Positions 1 to 61,565 are shown, counted from the first letter of the whole stretch. The stretch is DNA of 63,914 nucleotides, filler included, from Psammoneis japonica (GCA_008632985.1; 4 parts of 4 records of this genome joined end to end with filler, not necessarily neighbours in it); one strand, 5' to 3'. The notes: a model not told the origin generated them from the letters alone. Program-made: numbers and translations.

Positions 1-1472
1 GCAATGACGTAAATTGTCTGGCATTTGTTCATGTCAAAAACAAACTGTGGAATCATCTCTCACTGTTCCATCAGACTTGGCACCCAAGCAGATTGTTTTT
101 CCCAATGGCAGACATGTTCCAGCCACAGGTGAACACACGCATTAAAAAGGGCAACATTTTTGCAATTTTTGTGTGGTCTCACCAACTTGTGATCAAACTG
201 TGTTGATTGGAGAACAATGCTCCTCTTGTTTGCAAGTGCTTTGACACACCAACAAGACCCACCTGAGTGCATTAAAACAATCTGTTGCTTGCATGCAGCT
301 GGGGAACGTCTCCTCAACCACCATGGTCACATGCACAATTTGAACTCCAGCCAAGATGCCACCAGCACTGAGAATGCCTTGTCCTTGGCACAAGCTGATG
401 TTGCTTCAGGAGCTGCAGTGGGATGGGCAGGCAAGGGCATTTTGGTTTTGATCAGCTCTGGTGGCTGCACAGCCTTGTCTCCATGTCAACGCAAGGGGGT
501 GGTCAACAAGGCTTGATGTGACAATGCTCGGGGACAACGCGCTTGGAGCACAACAAGACAAAACCAACATTGTCAATCACGCAGACATGAAGGCCAATCA
601 ACTCTGTGACAATGTCAGTGTGGTGCATGCCAAGAGACAGACAATTGGTGTGAACAAGAGGTGAGGCATTCCAAAAAATGGCAGCAGCATGTTGGTTGGC
701 ACGGGGCACAGCAGAAGCAGCTTGACACTTGTTCACAACAAACATTTTTTCCTGATGCCAAAGTGGCCATGATGTGCCAAGCAGATCAAGGATGGGGGTT
801 GCTGGATTTGCAAATTTTGCAGCTGCCCTCACACTTTGCTGGGAAGTCATGTGTTTTTCTCACATGACAAGTCAGAGCACAAACATCTCAAAACTCTTTG
901 TGAGAGATGCCTGGCTCAGTGCCGCTGACACCTGGGACAGTGAAACCATCAGCCGTGTGCTTGACAGTTTGATGTTGGCCACTTCACGCATGATGATGAT
1001 GGTCCTGTGGCACACTGTGACAACCACTCTAGCCACCAGCTGCCACCAGTTAGAGGGCCCCAACTCTAACTGTTTACAACTGATTTGACTGTGTCGACTG
1101 GCTCAGTTGACTGCAACAAATGCAAAACGTCTGTCCCTGATGCGTTTTTTGGATTTTTGATTTTGATCCTCAGATCACTTCCAACTTCCATCTCAAGTGG
1201 TGACACGCGATCTGTTGCACAGAATTTTGAAAACGTGGATTCTTAAAAATCTGCATTCCCCAAAACAGTCATTTTTAAAAATGACACCGTTGTTTTTTGA
1301 GAATCGTTGGTCATGCCCATTGGGCAACGGTCATTTTGGGCATGTGGGCACAAATTTAACGGTCACACAATTTGACACTGTGCACACATGACATCACATC
1401 ACACAACAATGTGACACACAACACAACATCACTGCATCACATGATTTGACACCACAATGCATTTGCACACAA

Positions 1473-2840
1473 TCACATGCATCTTGGGATTTTGTCAGCT
1501 TTTGACACATCTGGTGGACAACCATTGACAGCCATTTTCAATTCTTTGCAACTGCTCTTGTCCAAGGCTTTCAAGACATGAACTTTCTCTCCTCCAAGTC
1601 TCTTAAAGTGATCCAACATGGCAACCTTGGTTTTTGAAATCGGGGTCGCTTTTGTGACCCTCCTGAAACTCAACGCATTTCTGCCATCCCTTTTTCACAT
1701 CAGCTGCAGTGTGTCCTTCAAAAGGATCGGACTTCTCCTCCTCCTGTTCCTTGTGCTGGCCTTCTTGCTGCTCCTCTTCTGACTCATCATGCTGCTCATC
1801 CTCCTCTGACTTGTCCTGCTGTTTGTCCCGGTGTTCCTTCTTTTGCTCTTCCTGTTGCTTGTGCTGACTCTCCTTCTCTGGCTCCTGTGTGACCTCTTCA
1901 GATTGCATTGATGAGTTTTCCTCCTGCTCTTCCTCCTGCTGTTCCTCCTCCTCCTGAGGTGTCTCTGCAGATTTCCTTCATGGATCCTTTTGACAGTTCC
2001 TTGGATCCTTGAGATTTCCCTTGGCACTTGTTCTGGATGTCCAAATGCTCTTCATCGCAACCAGCTTTTTCCTGCCATGTGCTGCAACAATGGTGCCCTC
2101 TTCTCATGCCTGTTTGTGCGCAATTTCTGCTTGCACCTTGCACCTGTTCCTTGGTTTGTCAACAACAGCAACCTCTTCTCGCAGAGTGTGCCTGTTCCTG
2201 GGCAGCCCATCAACACTGGCAACCTCTGCTTGTGGCGTGCGCCTTTTCATTGGTTTGTCCATTTCCACCATGCTCTTCTGCATGGGTTTGTTGCACTTCT
2301 TTGCTGCCTTGTTGCTCTTCTTGCCAGATTTCTTGGGCAACTTTGCCACCTTTGCATCTTCACAAACTGTCAGAGCCATCAGTGCTGTTGTCAATCAGAG
2401 GAAATGGAGCTAGAGGAACCGTCAGTGTCCTCGGAGACAACATCTTCCAAGTCGCTCTTGGTGTTTGTCTTCCATTTCTTCTTGGCTCCCTCAGAGACAT
2501 CATCTTCTGAGTTTCCATTGGTGGCCTTCTTCCTTTTCTTTTTGAGATCTTTCAAGTGCTTCCTCCAGCAGTTAAAGTGTGTGCATTTAGGGCCATGTTT
2601 CTGGTGGCAACTGGTGAGGGTGGTGGCTTTCTGGATGGTGCACACCACCCCAAACTTGGTGGCGCAAGGCAAACAAATGCACTTGGTTGGCATTTCCTCC
2701 ACCATGCTGGGTGTCACCAGGTTGTTTGCACCATCTCTGATGGAAATGGCAAAGCAACGAATTCCTCCTTCATTCAAGGAAGATTTGACAGCTGTCCTCA
2801 GCTTGTGCATGTCCTTCTTTAGACTTGATGACATGGTCAA
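1473..2840 (-). pseudogene. Decayed gene of unknown function (K-rich and E/Q-rich low-complexity segments) within the TE block
   Basis: Collinear minus-strand ORF pieces 2391-2840, 2104-2394, 1603-1908 and 1473-1673, broken by TGA stops and frameshifts. No recognisable domain. Confidence 0.3.
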
Positions 2841-3550
2841 CCTTGATGCAGCATCACAAAAACAATGTGTTTTTTGTCTGTGTGTTTACATCATGAGGTG
2901 GTGGTGGCTCTTCACATGCACGCGTGTTGGCGTGTGCCACAACTGCATTTTTTGCATGTGACATCATCTTCATTGTGACTTCATGTTGTTCCCTAATTAA
3001 AAAGGTCTTTTTTTCCAAGTCAGCTGTGCCGTTTTTTGACATTTTGGGAATGCCACGGAACCACCAGCTCATTGCATCCAACTCAAAAGAGAAAGCAACA
3101 TGGTTGTTGCTGTTCCTCTCTTTGTTGTTGCTTTCTGTCCAGCATCAGCCATTGTTTGTTTCCCTTCTCCATGCCATGCATCTTGCAAGAGGCAACAGTG
3201 GTGCTCCGCCTTGGTCTAGAGGTCGCGACCTCTCACCATCCTCCTCTTCCTGTTGCTCTGCCAGATGGTCAAGATGTCAAACATGTGATGACTCTTTCTT
3301 GCATTGTCCTTGTCATTCACCTTGTTGTGGACATGCTGGAAGTTCCCTTTGCCCCATGATGTCTCTCCCAAACAGCCTCCTTGTCGTTCACCTCCTCGTG
3401 GATGTGCTGGAACTTCCCGTTGCCATGATGTTTCTCCTGAACAGTCTCCTCACCAATCACTTTGTTGCCATGCATCACCATCATGCCGTTGCAGCTTGTT
3501 GGCCAGCCGTGACCATCCTTCAAGAATGTCATCCAATTCCCCTGCCACTG

Positions 3551-4045
3551 CTCCGTTGCAGCCTGCAGCTCCATCGCCGTCATCACAGCAATGCTGTCAC
3601 GCTCCAACCGCTTCGTTGCAGCCTTCAGCTCTGTCTCCATTGTCGCAGCAATGTCATCATGCTCCGACCACTTCATTGCAGCCTTCAGCTCTGTTGCCGT
3701 CATCACAGCAATGCTGTCATGCTCCGACCACTTCGTTGCAGCCTGCAGCTCCGTTGCCATTGTTGCAGCAACACCGTCAAGCTCTGACCACTTTGTTGAA
3801 GCCTTCAGCTCCATCTCCGTCGTCGCAGCAATGCCGCCATGCTCTGACCGCTTCGTTGCAGCCTTCAGCTGTGTTGCCGTCATTGCAGCAATGCTGTCAT
3901 GCTCCGACCATTTTGTTGCAGCCTTCAGCTCTGTCGCCATCATTGCAGCAATGCTGTCATGCTTTCACCATGTCGTTGCAGCCTGCAGCTCCATTGCTGT
4001 CATTGCAGCAATGCTGCCATGCTCTGACCGCTTTGTTGCAGCCTG
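3551..4045. repeat. 60-bp tandem repeat, about 8 units, encoding a 20-aa repeat (ATELKAATKxSEHDSIAAxT) on the minus strand
   Basis: Successive 60-nt lines align: CTTCGTTGCAGCCTTCAGCTCTGTTGCCGTCATTGCAGCAATGCTGTCATGCTCCGACCA. Unit differences are mostly CG/TG/CA. Confidence 0.95.
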
Positions 4046-4869
4046 CTTGTCCAGCACAGTTGATTCAATTTGCTGCACTCCCTTCAGAAGCAGTTCATTG
4101 GGTGCCTGTGCATGCACCCATTGCTGGGTCAACTGCAGAAAAGAAGAGAACTCGTCATTCCAGGGGAAAGGGCCGTCCATTCAAGAAAACATCTTCCAGG
4201 CAAGCATCCTCCTCTCCTGCACAGATTGCCAATCACAGTGATGGCAGCGATCGTGGTTGTCGTTGTGGCCATCGTCATGGTCGTTCCCGCACTTGTTGTT
4301 CCTCCCTCTCCAGTTCTTGGTCAAGGCTCACCTCACAGTTGCGCTGTGAACATCGATCGCGGTCACGTCACTCATGATCAATTTCTTGGTTTCGGTCTCG
4401 TTCTCACTCCAGTTCCAGGTTCAGGTCTAGATCTCTGCGCCGGTCCTGTTCTCTTCAAGAGACCACCAGCAGGCATTGGTCCTTGTCTGTTGGTGGGCAT
4501 GGTCACTCTCTTTGGTCGACCACTGGGTCAAGTTCTGCAGGAAACTGCAGAAAGAAATGTCACCGTGTCTCTGTTGGTTGTTCCAGTTGCAAAGAAGAAC
4601 CCTTGTTTGTGTCACCCTCTCCTTGTGGATGCCTCTGCTCAAGGAATTCCCCCAAAAGCATGCGCCTGCCCAAAACTTGTGCAGCAGGAGTTTCAGCCCT
4701 GTTTCTCACTGCACAAGGTCTTCTGTTTCCAGGTCCCGTCTGCTCAACCTGTTCAGATGGATTGGAACATGCTTCATCTGCTCGCACCATGTCCCACACT
4801 TCCAGGTCTGACAGGCATCGTTCTCTCAGCTTGGACTCTTTAAGTTTGGACGCTTTGGAGTTGCCTGTT

Positions 4870-10500: not shown

Positions 10501-11400
10501 CCTTGTTGGTGGCAGTGATCATGGGTTCCATGTGCTCCATTCCAAACACTGTCAAGTGCGGTGATTGCTCATTGCGTCCAGTGCTTTTTGTCATGTTCAT
10601 GGCAGCCATTGCGTCAGGACAACAGGTGACCCAACTGGCACTGGGGTCACCCTCATCACGCCTCTCCTTCACAAGAGTGGCAATTGACTCCTTCAAGGAA
10701 CCGCTGGTCCTTTCCACAGAACCCTGATCATGGGGCATTCTTGCACGACCACGAACTGTTTGGATGGAAGGTTGAATTTCCTTCAGTTTGTCAATGACTT
10801 CCTTGCCATGAACTTCTCCCCCATGATCAGATTGACACATGAGTGGAGGACCGCCATGTGCTTGGACTCTTTTGTTGGAGTTGGATGCATCCATGACAAC
10901 CTGCTAAAATGATCCTTGACCACAAGAAGCCACCTGTGCATGACCCCGAACACATTGTTTTGTGGGTCCTCTGTGCAGTCAACTCAGTCTGCTTGGACCC
11001 TGTCACGAAAATGATCTGACATTGTGGGACGAACTGCACCTTTGTGCTTTGGAACACGTGGCTGCTTAGAAGAACATTGAGGACAAGTGTCAATGAAAGC
11101 CTTCACAATGCTTTGGGCCACATTGAAATGCTTGTCCTTTGCCACCAAGTGAGTGGATGCCACCTTCTTGTGACCAGACAATGAGTGGATTTGTTTGAGT
11201 GTGTCGAAGCACATCATCTGGTGAACTGCTTGTTTGAGCTTGTCCTCCCCTTTGCAAAAAAGCAACAAAGGGCCCTCCTGAGGATGCTCCACACAGCACT
11301 TGTTGTTCATGCAGTGCCACTCAGGATGTTTGCGGTGCCACTGCTTGACATTGAGACCCTTTTCAGGGTCCTCCGTGTCCATGTGATCAAGCAAGCACAG
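7590..11400 (-). mobile_element. Ginger/GIN-like DNA transposon ORF (decayed): H2C2 zinc finger, rve integrase, Ulp1/C48 peptidase, RING finger, Cys-rich tail
   Basis: IHSLSGH...CPQC (10984-11394); RVQAD..KDHF; CQSDHGGE...PHDQGSVER (10337-10894). Ulp1-like HHF, VYKG (for VYDG) and QTDGHQCG; RING CxxC...HVIHLHCLLNW...CPMC (8586-9308). No RT or LTR belonging to it. Confidence 0.75.
10048..10233. repeat. 93-bp direct duplication in the linker of the Ginger-like ORF
   Basis: Units 10048-10140 and 10141-10233 both encode LPHHAEEDDKKPAALPHP.D.EKK.AALPD. Confidence 0.9.
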
Positions 11401-11799
11401 GATCCGTCAAAACCTTGGATGTTTTGGTGGTGGAAGCACTGCCAACCTCATCCAAGCCATGAGCCTCAGCTGGAAAACAGCATTTGTGATGATTCTCTTC
11501 TGTCATGGCAGAAAGTTTGTTGGGAGACAACAATGCATTGTGCCCTCCGAGCGATCGTTGTGGTGCCGATGCAAAACGACCAGTTTTGCTGGAATGACGG
11601 GTGGGGGTGAGACTGAGTCGAAGCATGGTTGTCAGCAACAGAACAACAAAGAAATGGAAGCAGTGGTGGTGGTGATGCCAACAAAAGCAAGTTCCATGAA
11701 AAGAGTGCACAAAGTGAGATCATCATGGGAGACATTGGATGATTCAGAAATGGGAATCTTCAAGATGGGTCAACAAAAAAAAAGGGTGGCAACCTGGTT

Positions 11800-12330: not shown

Positions 12331-13665
12331 GGTGTCAGCAACAAGGTTTGTGTGGACTGCATTGCATGGGAGAGCGAGCATGGCATTTACGAGAATGAAT
12401 GGCAAGCATTTTTGAAAATGGATGGGGGGGATTCTTGACAGGATTTGCATGGGATTTTAGGTGCGCGAGCTTTGTCGCACGCGATTTTAGTTTGTCGAGC
12501 ACAGTTTTGTGTGCTCTTTAGTTCTGCGCACATGTGCGCGATGTAGTTTGCTTTCGAGCCACTCGGCTCACAAGAACAATGACAACAGCCCGACTTTACA
12601 ACCCACACATCTTCGGCTCCTGTGACGGCATCTCAGCAGGATGCCAATCTGCTGTTCGACAGCAGTGAGGAGCATTGTTTTGTCTGTTGCCATTTGCCTT
12701 CAATTTCTGTCAGATTGACAGTCTTGCTCATTGTTTGCCCATTGAGCAACCGCCATCATCGTCGTTGATTCTGCTGATGACGTCATTTTTCATTTGTGTG
12801 GACCTCCGCACATGTTCCACTTACATCGGCAAGTCTGCACACACTCAATGCCAGACATCGGCTGGAATTTAACACCTCCGTCAGACTCCTGTGCTGCTGG
12901 ACATCTGGATTGTTTACACTGCCCTTTGTCGCTGAAGATGCATGTCCAACGGCTGTGTCCAAGTCTGTCCTTGACCCTGGTCACTTGACATTTTCATTCA
13001 ATGGTTGATGGTCAAGAACCCTGCATGTTCAAGGATCTTTGTCACCAAGGACTTGAATCCACCCTGGACTTTGGCTTTGCCACCACTCCACAAGCTCGCC
13101 GAGTCTGCTGTCCCTAATCTGCCCCAGACTGCTGGCACTCCACAGTTCCACCAGGTCCACGAGGACAACTGTGAGAGCAAGCAGCCATGATCACAGTCTG
13201 CGTTGGGGCAAGGGTGCTTTTCCCACGTTTGTTCATTCGTCCACAGCGCCTGACGCCAACGTCAACTGGCCAGCCTGATCGGGAAATCCAACCGAAGTAA
13301 AACAAGAATGGTTCGGGGGTCTTGTCCACCTCTGGTCAGCTCACCTGCAGGGGTTTACAACCAGCTGCTCTGCTCGCAAGCAAACCAAAGCGTCGCCAGC
13401 CGCGGGTGTGGATGTGCCGGCACAACTCTGCGCACCTGACAGGAAGTTTAGCACTTGACTGTGAACGGGGTGGCACAACCCGGCGACTTCTGATTTTAAG
13501 ACAGTTCAAGATTTCAAGCCAAGTTTCAAGTCAAGTTTCAAGCCAAATTCAAGTCAAGACCATGCTCTAGATTTGTTTCTGCCTTTTGTTCCTGCTGCAC
13601 CGTCCTTCGTCATGGTTCTCACATGACAGCAACAAACCAGAAGCTTTGAGTGCATTCTAGGCACC

Positions 13666-18410: not shown

Positions 18411-18756
18411 AATCACTGCTGTTGTTCTCATTGAGATTGTTTTCACACTCAGTTTGACTCACAGAACTTTCACTCATTGCAAGTGCACCGACTGTTGGCA
18501 AGTGCACCGGCTGTTGGCAAGTGCATTTGCAGTTCATGCAATCACAATGATGGAGCCGTGTTGTTTGACAGCTGTCCCATGCAGCACAGTGGCGTGCCAT
18601 CACACCAATTGCACATTGGTCTGTTCTGCACCATGCGGGCATTTTGCTTAAAACGTGTTAATTTCGCGTGACAACATCATTTTGAAAAAACTTGTGTCAT
18701 CGTCACAGCCGTTGTGATGCGCAATGTGAGTCACGTTTTGTCAAAACGCCACCTTT

Positions 18757-47044: not shown

Positions 47045-48011
47045 ATGGCGGAACTCACCGATGCCGATTTGAAGCCTCACATTGAGCGATTGGTGCACAA
47101 GGTTGACTTGGATAGCACGAGTGCCAAAAAGTTTACAGCCCAACTATCAGAAGAGCTGGCGGCATTGACCTAAGCGGTCACAAGAAATTCATCAAAGCGA
47201 CCCTGCATGAAGTGATTCAGAAAATGGAACAAGACAAGCAAGACGAAAGTAGCGAGAAGAAGAGGATGAACCAGCACCACCGCCGAGAAAGAAAGCCAAG
47301 AGCAGCGGTGGAGGTGGTGGAGGCTTGGCTGCTCGTAAGGAAATATCAGACGAGCTTGCGGCCTTTCTGGGAAAGGGCAAGCAAATGGCTCGTACCGAAA
47401 TTGTCAAGGAACTCTGGGCATATATTCGGGAGCATGATTTGCAAAACCCAAACGACAAGCGTGAAATTCTGTTGGATGCAGAAATGCAAAAGGTCTTTGG
47501 TTGCAAGTCCTTTACCATGTTTAGCATGAACAAATACGTCGGAGCGCACATTCATCCATTCAAACCAGTCGATTTGACGTCGTCACCCAAAAAGAAAAAG
47601 GCGGCTGCTGCTACCTCCAAGAATGGAAAGAAGAAAGGACAGGATACGAAAAAGAGAAGAAGTGGAACGCAGGCACCGTACCAACTATCTCCCGAGTTGA
47701 TTCGGGTGGTTGAGAAGCGAATCTTGCCACGGCCTCAAGTCACACAAGCCTTGTGGGCGTATATTCGAAAGCACAATTTGCAAAATCCAAATGATAAGCG
47801 AGAAATTCTTTGTGATGACAAGCTACGTGCCGTCATGGGTGGAAAGGAAAAAGTTACCATGTTTAGTATGAACAAGTACATTACTCCACACTTGTTGGAG
47901 AAACTGGACAAGAGCTATTACAATCACGCGCAAGAGGAAAACGAGGACTCGGATCAGCATGATAGCGAATCAGGGGGAAGTGGGGCAGAATCTAGTGATG
48001 ACGAGGAATAG
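47045..48011 (+). CDS. DEK-C plus two SWIB/MDM2 domain protein (UAF30/Spp27-like)
   Basis: ARTEIVKELWAYIREHDLQNPNDKREILLD and PRPQVTQALWAYIRKHNLQNPNDKREILCD. DEK-C-like N-terminus from ATG 47045 with two apparent indels. Confidence 0.85.
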
Positions 48012-48364
48012 GCGGGGATGGAGAGGAAGTGTGTTCAATTGCATAATCGTACAATTCGAAGAGCGAGCGGTTTGTCAGTCTATTTTACTGTTAAGAATCT
48101 AGATGAGCGCCTCGTTCAATGCATAACATAGTTTCTTTATAGAGTCCTTGCTTGCTTCCTCTACTCTGCGGCGAACACTTGCAAAGGAAGATTCATAACA
48201 TGAAGCCATCGGGAATGCGCACTAGTCCAACTGTGCCTTAGAAGATCACAGGTTTCACTTGTTGCTTACAATAAAAAAGAGTAAAACAACAAAGAAACCG
48301 TGCATTTTTTCTCTCCACATGGCCTAAATTCTAAACCACGACCACAAGAACAATTCTTGAGCAG

Positions 48365-49553
48365 TTACAGGGTGAAGGGACGAACAGGCGCTGCTTCCAA
48401 AGCAAAAGCGGCGCAAGCATGTCTGCAATGACAAGTGTTCTTGCCAGTCAATGAATGATCATTGTTCAAAACAGTCAAACCCAGCATGGCATGTGCAGCT
48501 TCTCCACACTCCAGTTGATCCCAAGTTGTTGCAGCATGGTCTTTTGTCAATTTGGGTGATGACACACCATGAATCTTTTGCCACACCAACAAAAAGCCCC
48601 ACCACTTCCATCTTGTTCATCAGCTGCATTGCTGCAACAAATGCCAAGCCCAGCGGGGCAAAGCACACCACTTTATTGGGCACATTCATTGGAGCAATGG
48701 TTGGGAAACATTGCTTGTCCCTTCAATGTCACCTCAACCCAAACAGTCAGTGGCCATGGGAGCTGTGAGCTGGGCAGTGCTTGAACACCTGCAACAAGAA
48801 AAACAAGAAGAAAGTTTGTTGTGTGCGCTGGCTTGCACAAATGGAAACACAAGACCTGTGAACCATCTTCTCAGCAAGGAGAGAGGCAAGAGTTTGCAAG
48901 CTGTTGTGTTTTTGCCATGCAGCAGCTCTCCAGGAATGACAAAATCAAAAACTGTTTTGCCACTGCTGCCTCGCTGCTGCCACCCACACCAACACCGACC
49001 ACAAAACACAACACAAGCTCCATGTTTAAAGCACTGCTGTGCTTCTGCCCTGCAACTCTGGCAACAAGCTAACCCACACCCCCAGTGCATCATGTGATGT
49101 GGCACGCAGCAGCAGAGATGCGCAACAACCAGTCGAGAATCATGCCACAAGGCTGTGGTGCCCACCAGAAACAGCTGGCAGCAACAAAAACAGGACCAGC
49201 ACAATGACACTTCAAAAGCAAAGCATTTGATGCTTCACTTGGGTTTTCTTCCTGAGATTGGATCTGGCAGCAAAGGTGAAACAGGCAATCTGGAAAAGTT
49301 TCAACATGAGGAAGGGCAGGACAGAAAATGACCTCCAACTTGCGCTGAGCTGGACTCAAATTCACACTTCTGGGAGCAGCAACAACAGAAAAATGTTTGC
49401 AACATGGGGCAGAGAACTTAAAAGGACAATTAGCAGAAGGGGAGTCATTGACACTGGAGAGGCATGGACTGAGAGCAGCTGGCAAGTTGGCAAGCTGATC
49501 GTCCAAAAGGACCTTCAAGACACATGGAAAATGTGCTGAAACTTGTTCAGACT
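48365..49553 (+). mobile_element. Hypermutated fragment, possibly a LINE 3' region, cut by the LTR element
   Basis: Trp-spaced QAIWKSF..KGR...WTQ...W...WQ...WKM pattern and TpA-depleted composition. Confidence 0.3.
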
Positions 49554-52139
49554 TGACAGAATGCAAAGACAAATGGCAAGAATTCAAACAATGACTCCTT
49601 GCTGCTGTCTAAACAGCAGATGAGTCTCCACTCAGAGACCATCACAGGAGCCGAAAGACTGGTGTGTCGGCACAATCAGGCTGCTGTCATTCTTCTTGTG
49701 AGCCGTGTGGCTCGAAAGCAAACTGCATCGTGCGCGCACGTGCGGAGCTAAAGATGCGAGTAGCGCATGACAAATCACGCGCACCTAAAATCATGTTCAA
49801 ATCCTGTCACTCCCCATTTTGCTTGAGGGGCCACAGAAACAGATTTGACTTTGGATTGACTAAAGAACTTTGGAATCAAAGCACCAAAACATGAGGAGAC
49901 AAGAAAGGATCAAGGTCCTGGAGCAACGTTGCATTCTCCAAATGGGTCATCTTGAGTTGGGCTGCGTCTCCCCAATTGCAGATGCCGTTGCACCTTTTGA
50001 AGCTCAAGGCACACTTGGGATCTTGTGGGATTCCACATCTGCACTTGCAATGGAAGGAGCAAAGTTTGGTCTGGTTGACAATGTTGAACAGCGGGGCAAC
50101 ATCGCAGGACAATGTAGACAAGTTGACATCACCGTCACTCCCCAAACTAAGGTCATAAAGACTGACAGCCACCAAGGGATCCTGATTGGGAGGCCCAGTC
50201 TTGAGGTGCGAGACTTGAGGGATCCAATCAGGAGGCCCAGTCTCGAGATGCGAAGTTCCAGGGATCCAATCAGGAGGCACAGTCTCAAGATGCGAGACTT
50301 TAGGGATCCAGTCAGGAGGCCCAGTCTCCGGGTGTGAGACATGGGGGATCCAATCAGTGCGAAGCTGCTTGGATGTCCTGAACTCCCCATCTGATGAACC
50401 GGTTGAACTGTTGTGAACAGATTTGATGATGGGAAAAGGAGGCTCCCCATCAGGAGATGCAAGAAGCAAGTTGTCATTGCCGTCACTTCCCAAACAAAGG
50501 TCATGAAGGGTGACAGCAGCCAACACTTTGAGGTTGGCAGCATGTGGTTTGCGAGGTGCAAGGGTTGCAGCTTTGGAAGCCGTGGGTGGAGTGTCCCAAC
50601 TGGTTTCAAAGTGCGGGCCTGCGTAAGGGCTGCAATCCTGCACTAGGCCGAGGCTGCTTGCAGGCGGGGTGGTCAAGACATGCGGGGCGCGACTGATGCC
50701 AAAAGATGGGGACACCTGAGTGGCGGCACAGTGCGGGACTGGCGTCAAAATGGTGCTGGGTTCACCTGGTTTGGATGGCAAGGGACCCGGCACAGGTGCG
50801 GAGGGTGCTGCACCAGTGGCCAGAGAGGTCAAGCAGTCCGGACCAAGGCGGCAGTTGCGAAATTCCTCGGGTGTGAACAACTGAGGGTTGTTGCTGACGT
50901 CATCACCATTGCGGGATTTGACAGTGTAGAAACTGATCAAAGCTGCCAACAGATTCTTGTGCCCACGTGGCAAAGGTGCAATGCTGCCGTTGTTGTCATA
51001 GACGAGGGCGTCGATTTGGGACGGGAGAAAAGCAAACAGATCTTCGCACGAATCAGAGCCATCAATTGACAGAGCTGATCAAAGAGGGCTGTTCTCACTT
51101 TGGTTGAGCACAGTGCCGAGAATGCACTCAAAGCTTTTGGTTTGTTGCTGTCGCGTGAGAACCATGACAAAGGATGGTGCAGCAGATGCAAATGACAGGA
51201 ACGAATCTAGAGCGTGGTCTCGACCAGAAGTTTTGACTGGAAACTTGGGTTGCAAAACTTGACTTGAAACAGACTTGACTTGAAACAGACTTGACTTGAA
51301 ATCTTGAACTATCTCAAGATCAGAAGTTGCCGGGTTGTGCTGTCCTGTTTGCAGCCAAGTGCAAAACTTCCCATCCGGACCGCAGAGTTGTGTGGGCATG
51401 TCCGAACCCGCAGCTGGTGGCGCTTTGGGTTGCTTGCGAACGGAGCAGCAGGTTGTAAGCCCCTGCAGGCAAGCTAACCAGAGGTGGACAAGACCCCCGA
51501 ACCGTTCTTATTTTGTGTCGGTTGGATTTCCCGATCAGGCTGGCCAGCTGACGTTGGCGTCAGGTGCTGTGGACGAACGAACAAATGCGGGAAAAGCACC
51601 CTCGCCCCAACGTAGACTGCAATCACGGCTGCTTGCTCTCACAGTCATCCTCGTGGACCTGGCAGAACTGCAGAGCACCAGCAGTCTGGGGCAGACAGGA
51701 AACAATGGACTCGGCGTGCGTGTGGGGAAGTGGCAAGGCCGGAGTCAAAGGAGCAGGATCAAGTCCTTGGTTGTCTCGGTCGTGAAAAAGCATGTGCATG
51801 TGTGCATTCAGCGATGAAGCTCCTTGAATGGGTGTGGGGTTCTTGACCGTTAACCGTTGAATGAACATGTCCAGCGACCGTCAACCGATGAATGAAGATT
51901 TCAAGCGACGGGGATCAAGAACAGACTTGGAAACAGCCGTTGAATGCAGGTCTTTGGCAAACAAAAGGTGGCACAATCAATCCAGACATGCAGCAGTAAA
52001 AGGAGTCCAATGGGGAGGTTAAACTCCTGCCGATGCTTGGCATTGAGTGCGCGTAGACATGCCGATGTAAGCAGAACACACACAGAGGCCTGCGCAAAAT
52101 GAAAACAGCATCGTCGGCAGATCAATGACGACGATGGTG
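49554..52139 (-). mobile_element. Second copy of the non-autonomous LTR element; 3' LTR at 49554-49809, 5' end interrupted by Gypsy A
   Basis: Collinear reverse complement of 12750-15735: LTR, PPT, gag-like ORF and 42-bp repeats. Confidence 0.92.
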
Positions 52140-55100
52140 TGTCATGTGGCACAAGGCCCATTGTGGGTGATTGTGGTGATTTTAAGAGTCGTTCATGAAA
52201 AGTGAGACTGCAAAAGTGTAAAATTCTAAAGTGAAGTTCTGGAGCGGCGGTTCTGTGGAATGTTCTTTGTCTTGTCTTTTTCCAGAGACTTTTCTTCCCA
52301 CTCATGCACTGAATGTTCCTGAGATTGTTCTTAAATGCATGGCATCTTGGGACTTCTGAGGAGTTGTCTTGAGACTCATGCATCGTGTCCGAAGGTGTCA
52401 CGGGAAAAGTCGAGTGCTCTGATTCGCTCTTCATTGTCTTGACCATTTTCTTGTGAGAATTGGATTGGTTGAAAAGGGACTTGAAGTTTGGTCAAGAAAT
52501 GTCTTCTTGATTTACTTGGGAAGTGGCACAGTGTGCTCAGGGAGTGACCGTTGTGTCCCGATGTTCAGCATCGCTTTCTGCACGTGCTCGGTTGTTTGCT
52601 TGGGCAGAAGATTTTGGACAAATTGTTCATGGAACATGTGTGTGTCTCTTGATGTGTGTTCACGTAGATGCGTGTTGGTTCTGTTGGTCATTCTCTGTTG
52701 TTCTTTAAGACGTCACAAAGTGTCGGGTCATGAGCACGATGTGACATGCACCTCCTCCAATGAATCACATCAGGGAGAGAAAGGAACGAGACGTTGTGTG
52801 TTGACAGTCTCGCGGTGATTTCCTTTTTGGATGATGACGGTGCCATTGGACTTTGTTTCATGTGTCTCGCATGGGCCAAGTTGGTGCAAGGCGAGTTTGG
52901 ATCGATGAGGGTCATCGTTTCGGAGAGAAACAAGGTCTCCTGCTTTGAAGTCATGATCGAGTCGCCGAGAGTTTTCACGCGCGTCATCCACTTGCGCTTG
53001 TTGTCGGCGGTGAGCACAAATGGTCGGCCAGTGGACGTTGCATTGTAAGGGCAAGATCATGTTGTGTCCAAAAGCAAGTTGGCCGGCAGAGGCTAGCATG
53101 ACGGTGTGTGCCATCGAGTTCATTGCCCAAGTTGCTGAGGCTGTCATTGCATTCCACGGATTTGGTTGATTAAATGCGTTGGGACCATCAACTTGTTGAG
53201 CTCATGTGCAGCTCCACAAAACATCGTGGGTCCGTTTGAGCAGTGAATTTGCTTGTGGGTTCTGCACTGTTGTGGGCTTAGACTTGGTCCCATGAGAAAT
53301 TGACAGCTCTTGAAATTCAATGCCTGTAAATTCTGCACCGTTGTCGTGCGTGCAACAGACCGGGCATGGGAATTTGCATGACCACACTTGGTCAAATGCT
53401 CTGGCAGTTTCCAGAGCTGAGACTGTTGAGATCTGATCCATGCCAGAATGATGAGCAGCTAGATCCACCATCGCAAGGGCGGTCAGCATTAAACTCTGTC
53501 GGTTGACGCCGGCACCAGTGGCAAAGGCAATCGGTCCGACAGTGTCGACTGCCACCTGCAACCAGGGGTTGATCTCAAGGGCCTGTGTGTCCTTGAGAGG
53601 TGTTTTTCCATGTGCTCTGCGGTTCTCTTTGGACCTTGGACAGGTCTGACATTGGTCTGTTTTTGTTTTGACGCCTTGGGTCAAGCCTTGCCAATGACAG
53701 CACTGTCTGAGGGTCTTTTCCATCCGTTGGACACCTGGATGGCGTAAATTGACATGATGCCAATTCAACAGAGGTGCTTGTAGAGCTGCAGGGATGACAA
53801 TCTTGTCCTCAAAAAGGACCAGGCACAGGTGTCCATCCTGCACCATGCAACTGCAGTCAGGTGATTCTTTCCGACTCGGGTCAGTTCGAGCAAGTTTCAA
53901 TGCTTTTTTGCACACAGCATCATCTTGCTGTGCTTCAATGATTGTGTCAAAGGAGACAGGACAGTGAGTGTCATCATCACATTCAAAGGCAAAACACTCT
54001 TCCAGCATTGGATCTGCCGCTGGCATCTCTGGGTCGTCAGTCGTGGTCACGGCACGGGACAGGAATTCCGCAAGCACATTTTTTGCTCCCGGCAGATAAA
54101 GAATCATGGGACCAAATTCTTCCACAATCAGCCGCCAACGACATGCTCGGTCTGATTTGAAATTTGCAAAGGTCAGATTCTTGTGATCCACACAAATCAT
54201 GATCCTGTGACCCAACAGGATGTCACGACACTCTCGGAGCATCACAACTGTCGACAGCAATTGTTGTTCAACAACTGGACATCTTTTTTGCGTGTCAGAG
54301 AGTTTGCGGGAGTAAATTGCTGTTGGGCGCTTGTCTTGAATGACAACGCTGCCTGGCTGGCATTTTGAAGCATTGGTGTAGATGCAGAACATCTCATTGA
54401 AATCAGAGCAGGCAAGAAGCGTCTCGGCAGAGATCCATCTCTTGATTTCTTGAAACGCTTGTTCGTGTTCGGGTTTCCACTTGAACTTGACTGCTTTTGA
54501 GGTCATGCTCGAAAGAGGTGCCAACAGATGGGCACGAAGGCGCCACATCTCGCGACAGAAGTTTGTTGTTCCGACAAAACCTCTGAGTTCTTTCTTTGTT
54601 TTGGGTGAAACCAAATTCACAATTGCATTGACCTTTTTTGGTTGCGGCTTGATTCCATGCCCAGTGATGACAAATCCTAGGTGCTCCGTTTCTAGAGTGC
54701 AAAAGAAAGTTTTTCGCAAATTTGTTCTAAAGCCTGCATCATTCAAAAGCACAAACACTTCATGCAATTGGGCAAGGTGATCATCAAAGGATCCCTTGCC
54801 AACAATCAATGGGTCGTCAATGAAAATCAAAACGAATTCCAAGTGTCCTGACAGGTCAGTCATGACTTCTTGGAATGCATCTGGGGCTGGTGCAAGTCCC
54901 ATTGGCAATCTGCAGCAAGCATGTTTGCTGAACGGCAGCACAGCAGTCAAATGCTGCTGACATTTCTGGCTGATCTGTGTCGTAAAAAATCCCATGTTCA
55001 AATCGATCGCTGTGACACAAGCACAGCCGTGTGGCTTTCGTAGCATGGTTGGCATTGAAGGCAGAGGCCAAGGGCATCGTTGCATGCATTGATTTAAAAG

Positions 55101-56615
55101 CCGAAAGTCGGTGACGAATCGGCAATCACCACCTTTCTTCGGTGTGAACATTGAAGGAAATCCCCAAGCTGAGTCTGAGATCCTTCTCAGAACTCCTGCT
55201 CGGCATGATCACTCTGCTTCTCCCTTCGCCATGTTGTGGTTGATCTGGGGTGTGCTGTGAGGTCGGCACATGATGGGCTTGGTGCCGGGCTTAAGCTCAA
55301 CACTGACCAGTGGTCGCTTGACACACTGTCTGAGCTCTCCTTGCGTGAGGCTTGAGAAGTCTTCTGGCAAGGCAACAAGAGCTTCACCTTGTTCTCTTGA
55401 CAGATGCTCGGGCACACATTCTTGTAAGTCCTCTGCAGGACTGCAGTCATTTGGGCAAACAGCCTTGGTCTTACGAGCTGCCATGAGCTCTTCTAGCATC
55501 GTCGGTTGGTGCCAAAAATCTTCAGGATGTCTCATTGGAAAGGACAAGTCATCCCAAGTGATGACTTTTTCTTGGAAATCAAGCTTCATTCCAAGCTTGA
55601 ACAGAACATCTCGTCCCACCACAGCATCGTAGATTCCCTGCAAGGATGAAATGTAAAGGCGTACGTTGAATTGTCTGTGTGAGGATGTGTCAAGGAATCG
55701 ACAACAAGCTGGCACGATGTGAGTTGTCTGATGGGTCTGCGCAAACAAGGTCTCCCATTGTGTTGGTGCTGAGGCAGCCTCATCCAGTGCTCCTTCTGAG
55801 AGCACATCTTTCTTTGTCATTGTTCAACTGCTGCCGCTGTTGAGTGAGGCGAGCAGAACATTGTTGCTTTTGTCTTGAGTCCCATCGATTGGATCAAGCA
55901 GTTGAAGCCGCACGACACATCCGGGGTTCTTCCATTTGTGTTTTTGAGGCTTTCATGCTGCGTGTCTTTTTGGCTTTTTGTTTGCTGCTTTGCTCTTCTT
56001 CTTGTTCTCTGAAATGGTCAGACATGCCATCTCCAAGGATTTCTTCTTGTTGGTGGAACCAAGTGCGATGCTCTTCATCATCTGGGTGCACCACACCAGG
56101 TTCACAGTAAAAAAAATTGTGATCACTGAATGCACTCAAAGGCTTGTCACCATCACTGTGAGGATCTGGTTCAGGCATTCGTGCCACTGGTTGTGGCTCA
56201 GGCACCACGGCTGGCACAAGTTCATGCATCATGAGAACACTTTCTTCATCGGTGTCAGACTCTGGGGCCGCTGACATTTTCTTGTCAGACTTGCCAGTCA
56301 CAAGTTCGTCTGCCGATGCAGCTCGCTTCGTCTTTGATGTGGTTGCTCAACGAGAAAGTGAGCCATGTTGCTCATGTGGGCAGGGTTTGGTGTCTTCGGA
56401 CGTTTTCGAATGTCCTTCATCTTCATGGAATTCATCTGGATGACTTGGGACAATCAAGTTTCTTCTCGCAGGATGAATGCCTCCATGAGGGAACACTGCG
56501 CAGCAGTCGCAATCATCCATTCCATCTGGACATGGTGCCTCTGTCAACTCCTGGGCATCCGTGCTGTTGTCATGCTCAAAGATTGATGACATCAGAGATG
56601 CGCGCTTGCACGCGC
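52140..56615 (-). mobile_element. Ty3/Gypsy element A (3' LTR 52140-52746; PR-RT-RH-IN), gag interrupted by Gypsy B
   Basis: LLASLNSGS (for LLDSG), FIDDPL, CIYTNASK, HPGVQRM, THDNGAEF. PPT GGAGGAGG next to TGTCAC...ATGACA. Confidence 0.9.
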
Positions 56616-59600
56616 TGTCTGCCCTGTGTGTGCACTGGGCGCTGAAAAAGAAGATGTGTTTTGACTTTGTCGTTGTGAAAATTGTGAGCTAGTTTAGAGC
56701 AGAGAAAATGGGATCGTGCGAACAGGGAATCTTGCCAAATCCCCATTCGTTTGCATTTGGATCGCATCAAATCGATCGTGCGTTTGCATTGTGGATCGTG
56801 CGAATCAAGCCATCACGTGCCATGCACGAGTGATGTCATCATGTGGAATCACACTGCCATCGTGGGCCAGACGATGGGCCAGTGTGCTTCACACGGATGC
56901 TCTCTCAGCATCCTTCTGGAATTGCCTGAGACCCAGAGCCATGCCCTCCTGTGGTCGTGCTTCCCAGGTGCGTGTTGACAACACTACGTTGCCATGCACA
57001 AGAGGCTTGCGCATGGTCTCGCCGTGTTGTCCAGCAGCGAGGCACACTGCACACTCCCCCATGATCAGGGCCGTTAAGTGACAGAATGTCTCACTGGTGA
57101 CAGGGTGCAATCTGCCATAGATTGCACGCATCCATCAGCGCTCCGTTCTGGGTGCGCAACATGCCGTTGTCATGTGCACGGACAACTCTGGCAGGTCCTG
57201 CACAGCTGTCAGAACTGCACTTAGAGGATTGTTCCTGTTTGATGAGTGCCAATTGCCCTGCGGTGCATTGACACTCCTTGTGTTTCTGATTTTCACGCTT
57301 GTCATTTAAGTGGACAAGCTTCTGCTTTCTGGTTTCTGTGTGCTTCCACTTGGCACGATGGGCAATGGACAAAACCGCGTCACGTCTGAAGACCAATTGC
57401 ATGGGACTTGCACATGTGGTCGTGTGCACCGCAGCTCTAACAGCGAAGGCTGCTGTGGAGAGGATGCCACTCCATGGGTCATCTTTGTCCAGTTCCATGT
57501 CCTGCACTGAAAAGGAATGCACCATGTTGCCAAGTGTCTGGTGCACATGTTCCACTGTGGCATTCGCCTGTGGATTCCACTTGCTTGTGGGTTTCTTCAA
57601 AATCCCACAGTCATTTTTAATCATCTGGCTAAATTCTGCCATAAATTCTGTCCCACGGTCATAAACCACCTGGGTTGGCCACGGATGTCTGCATGGCCAC
57701 ATTTGTTCTACGACGTTTGCTACGACGTCTGCGCGTTTCGTAGACACTTCTTCAATCTCGAACCACCCGGTTGCCGGGTCGATCATTGTGACCGCCCATG
57801 ACTGCAAAGTGTCCTTTCCGCGCATTTGAATTTTGTGTGGCCCTGTCACATCCATGCATGGAGTCTCCCATGGAATTATCTCAGCAACCTTTTCTGGCAG
57901 CTTCCCATGATGCTGCATTCAGCGTTTTGTCTTCTGGCATCGATCGCACTTGACGCATGTAGAGTGCACCGTAGACCTCATGCCAGGCCAGCAGAAGTGC
58001 TGGGCAATGGACATTTCCGTGCGTGTCTCTCCTGGATGACACAGTGTCTCGTGGTGCCATTCAGTTGGCAGAACCTGCAATGACTGTGGTGCTGCGATTT
58101 TGTCCTTATGACAGATTAACTGTCGTGATGACCCTCCCCCACGACACGTGCGAATGGAGCAGTCGGACGAGTCCTCAGCTCGCGAGAGCAGGTGCTTGTC
58201 CTTTTGTTGTTCTTTTTGAATGTGCTTGAAGCCAACGGGCGGAGGTGCGGCGTCTTGCGCCTCTGCATTAAAGAGGCTTCATGCAAAGGACGACTCGATG
58301 GAGTGTCTTTTACATCCGGATTGGCTTCGGAAGGCAAGCTGGGTGCCAGCCGAAGGCGACTGAGAGCGTCAGCGACTGGGTTGTGGGTGCCCTTAACACA
58401 GCGTAATTCGGGACCGCATTCTTCGCATGTCAACCGCCAGCACATGACACACTCGGCATTGAATGCTTTGTGCGCAAGATGCCCATGATCAGCATGTGTG
58501 ATCATGCGACAACCAAGGAGAATCGTTTGAAATTCTTTCAACGTCTCCACAATGGCGAGCAATTCTCTCTCCATTGTTGTGCAATTTAATTGCGCACTGT
58601 CAAGCTTTCTGCTGTAAAAGGCGACAGGTTTATCATCTTGGGACACAACTGCTCTCAATTGATGTTTAGAGGCATCGGTGTGCATCTCAAAGGGTTCATT
58701 AAAATCAGGATGTGACAACAAAACATCATCCAATGTTGCCCGTTTAACGGTTTCGAATGCCTCGTTTTCAACGGATGTCCACTCCCACTTGACAGTCTCG
58801 CTTGCGAGTCGTGTTGGCGGAGCCAAGACTTCAGAACGTCTAATCCACGTGTCGTGGCAGCAGTTCACCACACCAATGAATGACCCGCAGGTCGCGTTTG
58901 TTGGTTGGGGTTGCGATTCGCTTGATGGCGTCGACTTTATCAGGCATTGGTCACACTCCGTCTCTGTTGACCAAATGACCCAAGCACTCTAATTGGGTTT
59001 GACAGAAGTGAGATTTGGTTGCGTCAACTTTTAGTCCTGCTTTCTGGACCCTCAATGAAACTTCTTCAAGTTTGTTGAGGTGATCTTCACAGGTGCCTTT
59101 TGTCACGACGAGAAGGTCATCTAAGCACGTTCAAACAAACGATGGATCTTCAAATGGGCCTGACATGCGTTCTTGGAAAATGTCTGGCGAACTGCATGAC
59201 CCCATGGGCAACACCTGCATCTCATGCTTGCCCCACGGGAAGATGAGCGTGCAGAGCTTCTTGCCATCAGCATCCAATTGGATGTGACAATGGCCCACAT
59301 TTAAATCCAGAGATGTGGCCCACACAAAGCCTTTGAGCTTTGAGCAGCACGTCTTGGATGTGAGGAATCGGGTGAGGCAATCGCTTGATCCGTTTGTTCA
59401 GCTCTCTGAAATCATTGACAAAGCGTGCCGTTAAGTCTTTCTTCAGCATGACAAATGATGGAGCTGCCCATTGGGATCGGTTGACGCGTTTGAGAACACC
59501 GATGCGCGCTGGGCGCTCTGCTTCTTTACGCAGCACAGCTTCGTGCACACGAGGTGCTTTACACGGACGAGCGTGGTGTGGTTGTGCACCCTCCTTGAGT

Positions 59601-61565
59601 TGGATGTGGCAGGGTTCTCCCTTCCATTCTCCAGATGTCCCATCAAATGAGGACTCATGGCGTTTCAACAGTGCCAAAAGGTTGTTTTGTTGAACTGCAG
59701 AAAGTCCCATGGCCGATCGCATCATGTCCTTGAGGCAGGCCGGCGCGTGCTTGGCATCTGAAACACGCAAAATCCAGTCAGTTTCCGAAGACAAGGCTTC
59801 TGGATCTTGAAGATAGAAGGAGGTTTCCACCGCAGCATCCATGTGCCTCATTGGTGCTTCTCCATTGACTGATGGCCACTCTGTCATCTGTTCAGAGAAG
59901 ACAACATCAATGCCTTGTGTCTCCAGAATGTCACGTCCAACAATCATGTCGCACTTGCCCAACTTTCCATTGTGTGCGTGGACGGCATGTTTAAGTTCTG
60001 CAGTTTCGGACAATTCTGGCAACTGAAATTTAACGGCACAGTCGTCAGACGCACCAAACGAGCCTGTTGCCGTAGTCCAGTTAGTCTCAGCCATTGAATG
60101 GCTTTGCAAACGCTTGCAGTGTCAACTGTTGAGTGGAGTGCTGCTGGCGCCACCATCTGGCAGTGCCTCAATGGTCTGAGTCTTGCCCTTGCCATGTTCA
60201 GCATTCATGGCCACAAACAAGATTGGAGTGAGATGAGTCTTTTTAACTCATTTGCGGGATTGGCCTGCAACACGTGTACGATGGTAATTCAATTGTTCAT
60301 TCACACATTCATCCAATGTGTTAAAACCACCGGCATCATGTTGGCCTCCTCCTCAGGTGTCCGAATCTTTGGAATCACTTAAGTTGAGGTCACGGAAGTG
60401 ATCAAGCTCCTCCTTGCGTGCCTTGCACTTTTTCTGAGCATTGGCAAAGAACTCCTTGACCTTTGATCTGATGAGAGCATCAATGTCTTCCTCATTCCGA
60501 GGTTTTTCATCAGGCTTGCTGCCTCCGTTGTCAGAATGTCCAGTCTTGACATGTTTCACGTGGTGCTTGAGCTGACGGCAATCCTCCGCATGATGTCCAC
60601 AGTTGGTCCTGTGTGGCACACACGACTTCTGGGTGTTCCGTTGGTTCGTGATCAACGACTCAGGATTGTCCGTTCTACGTCCCCGCTTGCGTGGAACCCC
60701 AGTGTGTTGGTCCAGGTTACCTCCGGCAAGCTCGACCTGCTCGATGCGCTCGCAGAACTGTGCAAATTCGGCAACAGTGTGCGCCAAGGGGTCAAAATTC
60801 TGTAACGTCATGACTTTCTGCCACGCGTTCGGCACACCGCACTCGAACATGTCGCACAGTTCGTCATTGGGCAATGGTGCCGGTGCTTCTCCATCCTCCA
60901 TCACGGGTGGAAGCTGAGAGATGTGGCCGTTAATTTCAACAGCCCTTGCGACATGGTCACAAGTGGAAACCTCTGCGGGCTTGTGCATGAAGCGCCTCAG
61001 ATGACGCTTCTGCAACAGTGCCGCCCTGTGTGGGAAGATGCTCTCCTTTAGCTTCGCGATGCATGCTGCGTGCGTGGCATTGGTTTCGGATGCCTGCGTG
61101 TCAGCGGCATCATTGAATGACGTCAGAGCATCACCCTGTAGTGGGTCGCGCACAAGGGCAAATTTCGCTGGCCCGGTCGTCATGTTTTGTCCTTCGTGCA
61201 TGCGATCCACGTTGCGCAGAAAGATTGGGAGTGTCTCGCATGTAGCCGCAGAAAGGCACGGGATGCCCATCTCGTGCATTGGACTGTCCGGATCAGCAGG
61301 GTTGTTGTGCAGCTTGAACATCTGGCACTCGCCCTGCTGCAGCTCTTTCTTCTCCGGCTGTGCGAACGGAATCGGCGGCTTGGTCCGCTTCTTCATGGTC
61401 GTTTTGAGATTTGTCGGTCCCACCAACATTTCATAGTTTCGTTTCTGTGGATTTCGTCACCTCGCACAATGTGCGAGAGTGACATTGCTGTGCCCCATGT
61501 GTGCACTGGGCGCTGAAAAAGAAGATGTGTTTCGACTTTGTCGTTGTGAAAATTTGAGCTAGTTT
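56616..61565 (-). mobile_element. Ty3/Gypsy element B, nearly full length (3' LTR ~56616-57051; 5' LTR from ~61489 into the gap; gag 60353-61429; pol in frame)
   Basis: Shared LTR text GTGCACTGGGCGCTGAAAAAGAAGATGTG at both ends; PPT CATGGGGGAG. Motifs ALPDGGAS, WAAPSF, CLDD, HTDASK, VADALSR, YDRGTEF. Confidence 0.92.

Follow-up and report, generated by a model that had tools for sequence, protein, structure and literature searches.

TpA-targeted A:T to G:C hypermutation as the probable origin of TA-poor retrotransposon DNA in the diatom Psammoneis japonica

A stretch of 63,914 bases from the diatom Psammoneis japonica (GCA_008632985.1), in the following referred to as the window, was analysed for a loss of the dinucleotide TpA that an earlier note, made from the sequence alone, had described in its transposable elements (TEs). 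Three blocks of the window, located on three separate contigs, are TA-poor. They are probably decayed diatom long terminal repeat (LTR) retrotransposon DNA bearing the footprint of a TpA-targeted A:T>G:C hypermutation. The loss is large, is confined to TE DNA, runs from TA to CA or TG, is restricted to TpA, falls equally on both strands and includes changes that arose after integration.

The window is not one stretch of a chromosome but consists of four contigs joined end to end (two of them 20,381 and 20,384 bases long) by identical artificial linkers of the form N44-TTAATTAATTAA-N44, which carry stops in all six frames (Table 1). Adjacency read across these linkers is meaningless, and because the linkers lie between contigs, real borders of TE and host DNA are found only within contigs, at about 27.4 kb and about 48.37 kb. 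According to the earlier note, adjacent host genes are unaffected. This holds, and sharply so, at the two borders within contigs, whereas the other adjacencies are linker joins. A separate gap of 778 N is located inside the last contig (62597-63374).

TpA depletion and its confinement to TE DNA

TE DNA was pooled from positions 1-20600, 27450-41081 and 48380-61565 (47,418 bp) and compared to the pooled host DNA (15,320 bp). The TE DNA holds 294 TpA, where 200 mononucleotide shuffles gave 3,097 +/- 41 with a minimum of 2,995. Expressed as observed/expected (O/E) ratios, this corresponds to TA 0.09, CG 0.44 and CA/TG 1.70 at a G+C of 0.489, while the host DNA, with 548 TpA, showed TA 0.54, CG 0.94 and CA/TG 1.20 at a G+C of 0.485. 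The lower CpG and the gain in TpG and CpA are as CpG decay predicts. The remaining 12 dinucleotides are the same in TE and host DNA, e.g. AA with 1.20 and 1.21, respectively. The near absence of TpA in all three TE blocks, as described in the earlier note, was thus confirmed block by block (Table 1).

The sliding-window calculation that had been suggested there gave the same picture. In 1-kb windows, TpA O/E ranged from 0.00 to 0.28 at 1-20.6, 28-41 and 49-61 kb, and from 0.43 to 0.69 in the host-gene windows. Thresholds for a long-term footprint of this kind have been published for the chlorarachniophyte Bigelowiella natans (Rho_TpA <= 0.43 together with Rho_CpA+TpG >= 1.52; Mettrop et al., bioRxiv 10.64898/2026.01.13.699255), and these were passed by 42 of 46 TE windows and by 0 of 13 host windows. 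Both real TE/host borders are sharp within 200 bp, with successive TA counts per 200 bp of 12, 2 and 1 around 27.4 kb and a drop from 8 to 0 at 48.37 kb. Non-coding LTRs are depleted as well. Long open frames are present in all six frames of the TE blocks, because TAA and TAG are gone.

Polarity and context of the changes

The Gypsy pol genes of block 3 were aligned to a profile built from 60 homologues with an identity of about 40%, and only columns with at least 60% agreement among the homologues were used. In the case of Gypsy-2, 1 of 32 conserved Tyr was kept, compared to 392 of 593 residues over all conserved columns (Fisher p 1e-14), with Cys (15) and His (11) as replacements. In the case of Gypsy-1, 3 of 27 Tyr were kept versus 267 of 519 residues over all columns (p 1e-5), and Tyr was replaced by Cys (6), His (5) or Phe (9). 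The same column test on the host gene with a coatomer-gamma platform domain found 13 of 14 Tyr kept (one His) and 476 of 547 residues overall. The codons that replaced Tyr were TGY in 21 and CAY in 16 cases.

Other residues followed the same rule. Where conserved Val, Leu or Ile had changed to Ala, Pro, Ser or Thr by a second-position T>C, the product codon ended in A in 36 of 39 cases, while 51 of 141 retained Val, Leu and Ile codons did so (p 2e-10). First-position A>G changes were preceded by T in 29 of 41 cases against a background of 258 of 1,112 (p 6e-11), and first-position G>A changes followed C in 13 of 17. The single-step changes of Gypsy-2 (n=137) comprised 35 TA>CA, 35 TA>TG and 18 CpG transitions. 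Outside these contexts there were 2 T>C, 7 A>G, 4 G>A, 2 C>T and 34 transversions; a further 64 changes were multi-step. Gypsy-1 showed 17 TA>CA and 17 TA>TG codon changes. This classification leans to the TA class where the ancestral codon is ambiguous, a bias from which the product-codon tests are free.

The polarity from TA to CA or TG and the restriction to TpA, proposed in the earlier note from single motifs, are therefore upheld statistically, both by the T>C products of the form NCA (36/39) and by the A>G changes after T (29/41). T>C at TpA being no more frequent than elsewhere, which the note had named as evidence to the contrary, does not describe Gypsy-2, with 35 T>C at TpA and 2 at all other sites. 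The motifs themselves were present as placed. On the minus strand, LPDGG is encoded by CTGCCAGATGGTGGC at 60149-60163, where the protease DSG has become DGG, and CLDD by TGCTTAGATGAC at 59116-59127, in place of the reverse transcriptase (RT) motif YxDD. GHCHI (59281-59295), PHHARPC (59561-59581), EAERPA (59507-59524) and the Copia motifs CTDD (38506-38517) and CVDAD (37981-37995) were likewise recovered, as were the LTR difference of TTTAGG at 12458 versus TTTGGG at 15481 and a Gag frame of 358 amino acids, counted from the first Met, that contains no Tyr.

Action on integrated DNA

The two outcomes are balanced, with TA>CA to TA>TG ratios of 35:35 in Gypsy-2 and 17:17 in Gypsy-1. Strand-coordinated tracts were not found along the Gypsy elements, in which TA>CA and TA>TG are interleaved (runs-test z +0.70 and -1.20).

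Additional insight came from comparing LTRs. The LTR pair of the small element A has 31 mismatches, including 4 CA/TG doubles, 10 of CpG with TpG or CpA and 1 of TA with TG, and the LTR fragments of Gypsy-2 show one CA/TG double mismatch. Between element A and its relative, element B, 41 CA/TG doubles were counted, with 6 in the next commonest double class. Each CA/TG double in the LTR pair of element A marks one ancestral pyrimidine-purine step with a different resolution in the two LTRs. As LTRs are identical at integration, such doubles indicate that part of the conversion took place after integration and independently between copies. Taken together with the equal hits on both strands, this argues for a DNA process following integration and not for RNA editing. 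The LTR mismatches concerned are few, and at these small numbers they would point to action on integrated DNA. In the LTRs of element A about a third of the CpG was lost (estimate from the LTR counts), so that CpG decay appears slower here than TpA loss, which has left no TA site in sensitive contexts.

A wider sequence motif

Survival of TpA in its different contexts was measured relative to 80 related Gypsy elements. The highest values were found for TTAA (0.31), CTAG (0.21), CTAA/TTAG (0.19) and GTAA/TTAC (0.17), followed by GTAG/CTAC (0.11), ATAA/TTAT (0.07), ATAG/CTAT (0.017), GTAC (0.015) and ATAT (0.005), and for GTAT/ATAC survival was 0, with no site left in 47 kb. All three contigs show this same order. 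When host DNA is used as the baseline, TTAA is not depleted. The TA steps that both LTRs of element A still carry lie in TTAG (two sites), in GTAG and in TTAC.

An additive model fits these values within about twofold (fitted by hand), in which the rate per adenine depends on the 3' neighbour, with T and C far above G, and G above A. Survivor counts alone leave two readings, an effect of the base 3' of the hit adenine and an effect of the base two positions upstream. The outcome at Tyr codons bears on this, as a pyrimidine before TAY gave 15 Cys and 5 His, and a purine 6 Cys and 11 His. This split by the preceding base indicates an effect of the 3' neighbour and speaks against the upstream-base model. 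Overall, RTAY sites seem to have been erased (TAY on each strand), while TTAA and CTAG seem to survive best, a specificity that is new here; with thymine as the target, the same motif reads RTA. The mass balance of tetranucleotide products closes for most contexts, and with the host baseline it is too noisy for strand preferences.

Intact and mutated relatives

The earlier note had considered that intact family members might already lack TpA and Tyr. The relatives have normal levels of both. Homologues of Pol contain 3.9% Tyr and 1.3% Cys, as compared to 0.4% and 5.1% in Gypsy-1, and 80 related Gypsy loci from metagenomes had TA O/E values with a median of 0.74 and a minimum of 0.44, at a CA/TG of 1.09. 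The search patterns used for these loci contain Tyr and are hence biased toward unmutated elements; when metagenome contigs were scanned with only the mutated Pol protein, no relative was returned, and the 80 loci came from an alignment-based repeat of it.

A third Gypsy family shows the same footprint. Among the 120 Pol homologues listed, P0093 has 0.6% Tyr and kept 1 of 26 conserved Tyr, with 16 Cys and 6 His instead. Its cluster of ten members (P0093 and P0243-P0251) is 47-55% identical to Gypsy-2, and in 31 Tyr columns it carries 82 Cys, 44 His, 13 Tyr, 7 Arg and 19 Phe. Mixed columns such as CYCYHHCC and RRCHY indicate independent hits in different copies, and Arg (CGY) at ancestral Tyr columns would imply two hits on one TA step. 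The closest intact relative, P0252, is 56% identical and has 4.5% Tyr. From P0252 to P0247 the differences run one way, with Tyr>Cys 13:0, Tyr>His 10:1, Val>Ala 8:0, Leu>Ser 7:0 and Ile>Thr 5:0, and also Lys>Arg 15:3, Asn>Ser 5:0, Gln>Arg 3:0 and His>Arg 3:0. The latter changes suggest a weaker A>G after A or C, beyond TpA, in this family, which is not evident in the elements of the window. Three more of the 147 representatives evaluated have zero Tyr.

The Gypsy Pol proteins P0332, P0358 and P0373 of public protein sets likewise carry a footprint of Tyr>Cys/His. All these records, those of the third family included, may come from the source of the window or from other organisms.

Reads and paralogous copies

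Contigs from sequencing run X1 reproduce the TA-poor sequence at a word depth of about 36-85 in single-copy parts, and a 589-nt X1 unitig at 48475-49063 has 0 differences from the window. This match rules out an artefact of assembly or polishing. As every site has settled on either CA or TG and the host DNA of the same contigs is normal, the pattern is also unlike miscalls at modified bases. In the earlier note, absence of the changes from independent reads was to count against them; the unitigs derived from reads do carry them, with the reservation on the independence of X1 given below.

Most of block 3 is high-copy. Paralogous contigs differed from the window mostly by transitions, which went both ways (A>G 339, T>C 339, C>T 322 and G>A 362), with 28-45 for each transversion class. 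Among the 40 listed of 1,667 paralogue differences, 13 oppose CA/TG in the window to CG and 3 oppose CA/TG to TA, which is too few for a spectrum. The stretch 48380-48925 is as poor in TA as the remainder of the block, yet no paralogous contigs were found for it at a likeness of at least 80%, and its summed word depth of 59 is like that of host bins. It may belong to a mutated domain that extends beyond recognisable repeats, or be an old unique remnant. The term 'repeat-targeted' in the earlier note therefore stands as regards confinement to TE blocks, and not as regards repetitiveness as the trigger.

Elements and genes of the window

Domains were assigned with Pfam and repeats by self-comparison of the window (Table 1). 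In the TE blocks, Pfam recognised little beyond the two Gypsy elements, the Copia RT and Gypsy integrase remnants and the duplicated gene with helicase-associated domains.

Table 1. Blocks, elements and genes of the window, with O/E ratios where calculated.
Feature	Position	Strand	Remarks
Artificial linkers	20601-20700, 41082-41181, 61566-61665		Identical, stops in six frames
Block 1 (contig 1)	1-20600		TA-poor TE DNA throughout; TA 0.089, CG 0.435, CA/TG 1.71
Host genes	20701-27400	(-)	Normal TpA; TA 0.51
Block 2	27450-41081		TA-poor TE DNA, most decayed; TA 0.058, CG 0.23, CA/TG 1.81
Host genes	41182-48370		Normal TpA; TA 0.55; usual TA density up to 48366
Block 3	48380-61565	(-)	TA-poor TE DNA; TA 0.147, CG 0.63
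60-nt tandem repeat (minisatellite)	3547-4046		Block 1; TA-poor
Gypsy integrase remnant	10987-11406	(-)	Block 1
Small LTR element A	12436-15743	(+)	LTRs 12436-12716 and 15459-15738, 88.8% alike
TA-poor gene in two copies	17739-18877 and 19465-20600, in 17677-20600	(-)	Helicase-associated (HA, PF03457) domains
Copia RT remnants	37981-38631	(-)	CTDD and CVDAD replace Tyr motifs
Element B	49546-52470		Block 3; relative of element A, 81% identity
Gypsy-1 pol	52782-55823	(-)	RT, RNase H, integrase (Pfam)
Gypsy-2	56620-61565	(-)	Gag 60356-61456; protease, RT, RNase H and integrase in six frame pieces, 57094-60121
Host protein with coatomer-gamma platform domain	22961-25372	(-)	804-codon open frame
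SWIB-domain gene	47253-48008	(+)	Host

The LTR fragment of Gypsy-2 at 56620-56683 matches 61491-61554. Minisatellites in the TE blocks have units of about 60 nt (3547-4046) and 42 nt and are also found at 14398-14681 and 50189-50379; all are TA-poor, and the 42-nt array is common to elements A and B. The duplicated HA-domain gene is arranged in tandem, with two HA domains in each copy. Its copies differ at 10 of 1,131 aligned bases, with 0 differences at TpA and 6 at CpG. As none is at TpA, the duplication postdates the TA loss. A homologue search with the HA-domain protein gave a single match, too few for a conserved-column test outside retroelements. The gene may belong to a host family that was caught in the mutated domain, or be cargo of a transposon.

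In the case of the host protein with the coatomer-gamma platform domain, the closest relatives show 72% identity and Nitzschia inconspicua 58%; further named relatives, likewise diatoms, are from Bacillariaceae, Seminavis, Mayamaea, Fistulifera and Skeletonema, and the protein atlas held no usable match to it. The 804-codon frame matches only the C-terminal part of the relatives, which mostly have 1,200-1,400 residues, and the N-terminal part of this gene may lie in the adjacent 367-codon frame at 25357-26457(-). In a second run, X2, a contig omits 94 bases at 44536-44631 in a host gene on the minus strand, and the CT..AC ends of the omitted piece correspond to GT..AG on that strand. This looks like a spliced intron, which makes X2 resemble transcript data though it carries no RNA label. 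Most of block 3 is uncovered in X2, which was not used as expression evidence.

Discussion

The observations show the following process. After integration, the T:A pair of 5'-TA-3' steps was converted to C:G. A hit on the adenine of the written strand gives TA>TG and a hit on that of the other strand TA>CA, with both strands equal. Decay of CpG to TpG or CpA proceeds alongside, so that both funnel pyrimidine-purine steps into CA and TG and leave the G+C unchanged. The sparing of host genes a few hundred bases away indicates that the process would be aimed at silenced or foreign chromatin. An enzyme that deaminates adenine, acting in defence and directed to such DNA, would fit this picture, and the blocks could then represent the long-term, near-saturated footprint of the hypermutation restricted to TpA that has been seen live in B. 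natans.

In mutation-accumulation lines of that alga, 231 mutations were found in an integrated giant virus and a virophage. All but one (230) were A>G or T>C, these fell without exception on TpA, and the rate was about 1,000-fold higher than elsewhere in the genome (bioRxiv 10.64898/2026.01.13.699255). The target there is integrated, transcriptionally silent viral DNA in a single-copy region. TpA-poor coding sequences of B. natans are enriched for reverse-transcriptase and DDE domains, and its authors propose an ADAT2-like adenine deaminase (same preprint). What the two cases share is that TpA alone is hit and becomes TpG or CpA according to the strand, that foreign or selfish DNA is affected while the rest of the genome is normal, and that low Rho_TpA with high Rho_CpA+TpG marks the long-term footprint. 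They differ in the host, which is a chlorarachniophyte (Rhizaria) there and a diatom (stramenopile) here, and in the targets, i.e. a single-copy giant-virus insert and a virophage with mild TpA loss (Rho 0.45) as opposed to LTR retrotransposons at 0.06-0.15. The text of the preprint makes no link to CpG decay and includes neither diatoms nor retrotransposons nor a wider context. Moreover, rates were measured live in B. natans, while here there is the footprint only. The earlier note knew of no description of the signature in diatoms. With the 2026 preprint the process is no longer undescribed, but our literature searches returned no report of a TpA hypermutation signature in diatoms. We would class the present case as a second instance of TpA-specific A:T>G:C hypermutation, independent of, and much more saturated than, the one described in an alga of another supergroup.

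Among better known systems, fungal repeat-induced point mutation (RIP), a genome defence, converts C to T at CpA, creates TpA and leaves AT-rich DNA. It shares with the present case in-place transitions in selfish DNA, a dinucleotide preference and the sparing of genes, but its direction is opposite, and it was rejected as an explanation since here TpA is depleted, CpA shows a 1.7-fold enrichment and the G+C stays the same (0.489 vs 0.485). The animal deaminases ADAR (A-to-I in double-stranded RNA) and APOBEC3 (C-to-U in minus-strand cDNA) also hypermutate retroelements with a neighbour preference, but they act on RNA or replication intermediates and leave a signature on one strand, whereas here both strands are hit and the changes come after integration. 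The 3' preference of ADARs also differs from the preference for pyrimidine over purine found here. The decay of CpG, presumably by deamination of 5-methylcytosine, affects the same blocks (CpG O/E 0.23-0.63) and yields the same end products, TpG and CpA. It cannot remove TpA, and it coexists with the TpA loss without explaining it. As a lead only, tRNA adenosine deaminases have U33-A34 as their natural substrate, and bacterial TadA has U-A-C-G, which is reminiscent of T-A-Y.

As to the chemistry, enzymatic deamination of DNA adenine to inosine, read as G, is the most likely candidate, which we hold with a little less than even confidence. A TET/JBP-type oxidase that turns the T of TpA into 5-hydroxymethyl- or 5-formyl-uracil, which pairs with G and leads to T>C, would amount to the same targeted process at the DNA level. 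Since TA is palindromic, the strand symmetry and the RTA/TAY motif fit this oxidation equally well, and oxidised thymines are familiar from protists in the form of base J and the 5-hydroxymethyluracil of dinoflagellates. The latter base mainly pairs with A, though, no direct evidence speaks for the oxidase, and adenine deamination is the only proposal published for this signature (bioRxiv 10.64898/2026.01.13.699255). We consider the oxidation of thymine unlikely. Much less probable still is an ADAR-type A-to-I hyperediting of retroelement RNA, with the edits made permanent by reverse transcription and re-integration. Retroelements are indeed the targets resolved best here, the mutated copies were still copied, and ADARs prefer a U on the 5' side of the edited A (Discussion of bioRxiv 10.64898/2026.01.13.699255). 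Editing of sense RNA, however, predicts A>G on the coding strand alone, against the TA>TG to TA>CA ratios of 35:35 and 17:17 and the ratio of Tyr>Cys to Tyr>His of 21:16, so that the strand symmetry of the sequences largely refutes this route. Further evidence against it comes from the CA/TG doubles of post-integration origin in LTR pairs, from the tandem repeats, the non-coding DNA and the stretch without paralogues, which are equally TA-poor, and from the transcriptional silence of the integrated B. natans target (same preprint).

Two further explanations have very little probability in our view. Error-prone repair in heterochromatin with mutagenesis of the Pol-eta type at WA, one of the candidates of the earlier note, would account for A>G at A:T pairs, which is what Pol eta produces. 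WA includes ApA, and yet the O/E of ApA is unchanged (1.20 in TE and 1.21 in host DNA), while A>G in Gypsy-2 occurred 7 times away from TpA compared to 35 times at TpA, and TAA is the most resistant context. This candidate thus does not agree with the data. The least probable explanation of all is a native avoidance of TA by selection on UpA, or an artefact of sequencing, modification or assembly. Modified bases do cause miscalls on some platforms, and UpA avoidance is described for RNA viruses (PMC3829696). The loss of catalytic residues (YxDD to CLDD, DSG to DGG) excludes selection, non-coding LTRs are depleted as well and relatives are normal in TA. In addition, unitigs with a depth of about 36-85 show one fixed state, CA or TG, at each site, and the host DNA on the same contigs is normal.

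Several points weigh against the interpretation as TpA-targeted hypermutation, or limit how far it reaches. The sequence data agree with adenine and with thymine chemistry alike. The polarity derives from protein columns of relatives that are about 40% identical and not from a family consensus. CA/TG doubles can also originate from CpG; by an estimate from the CpG state counts of elements A and B, about half of them do, and TpA accounts for the others. The counts of TA and CA/TG states in the two elements lead to an estimate of only about 54 TA sites in 3.3 kb at the split of A and B. Much of the TA loss is common to copies, i.e. mutated DNA was still copied, or part of the loss predates the copying. 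Likewise, many Tyr columns of the third Gypsy family are uniformly Cys or uniformly His. The wider motif is in part deduced from survivors against proxy baselines and is to that degree provisional, and its strand-resolved test is small (Fisher p ~0.02, own estimate). Finally, run X1 is probably the source sample of the window itself and hence gives no independent support.

Going further, one may speculate on a chromatin-guided adenine editor of double-stranded DNA that acts at 5'-TAY-3', is common to diatoms and chlorarachniophytes and serves in genome defence as a natural adenine base editor; this is an attractive idea that we put forward with low confidence. If true, TEs and integrated viruses would be disarmed for good through the loss of codons for Tyr, of stops and of TATA-like signals. 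Algae of the SAR group (stramenopiles, alveolates, Rhizaria) would then have an immune module that is either ancient or repeatedly acquired, and this module would be a major, unrecognised force on the composition of repeats. A duplex-DNA adenine deaminase, if this is the true agent, would be the natural counterpart of the engineered adenine base editors. The erasure of RTAY, together with the resistance of TTAA and CTAG, provides a concrete specificity for finding the enzyme.

There are also practical consequences. Repeat annotation is confronted with pseudo-open reading frames that are free of Tyr and poor in stops in all six frames, dating by LTR divergence would be distorted, and the detection of foreign DNA by composition would be affected.

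Among primary producers, diatoms are one of the dominant groups, and what is known of their genome defences is mainly DNA methylation and histone marks. A TpA mutator acting on selfish DNA would add to these a second layer that is irreversible, as the mirror image of fungal RIP. The saturated footprint in a stramenopile and the live measurement in a rhizarian (bioRxiv 10.64898/2026.01.13.699255) suggest altogether that the system is widespread and not the curiosity of one species.

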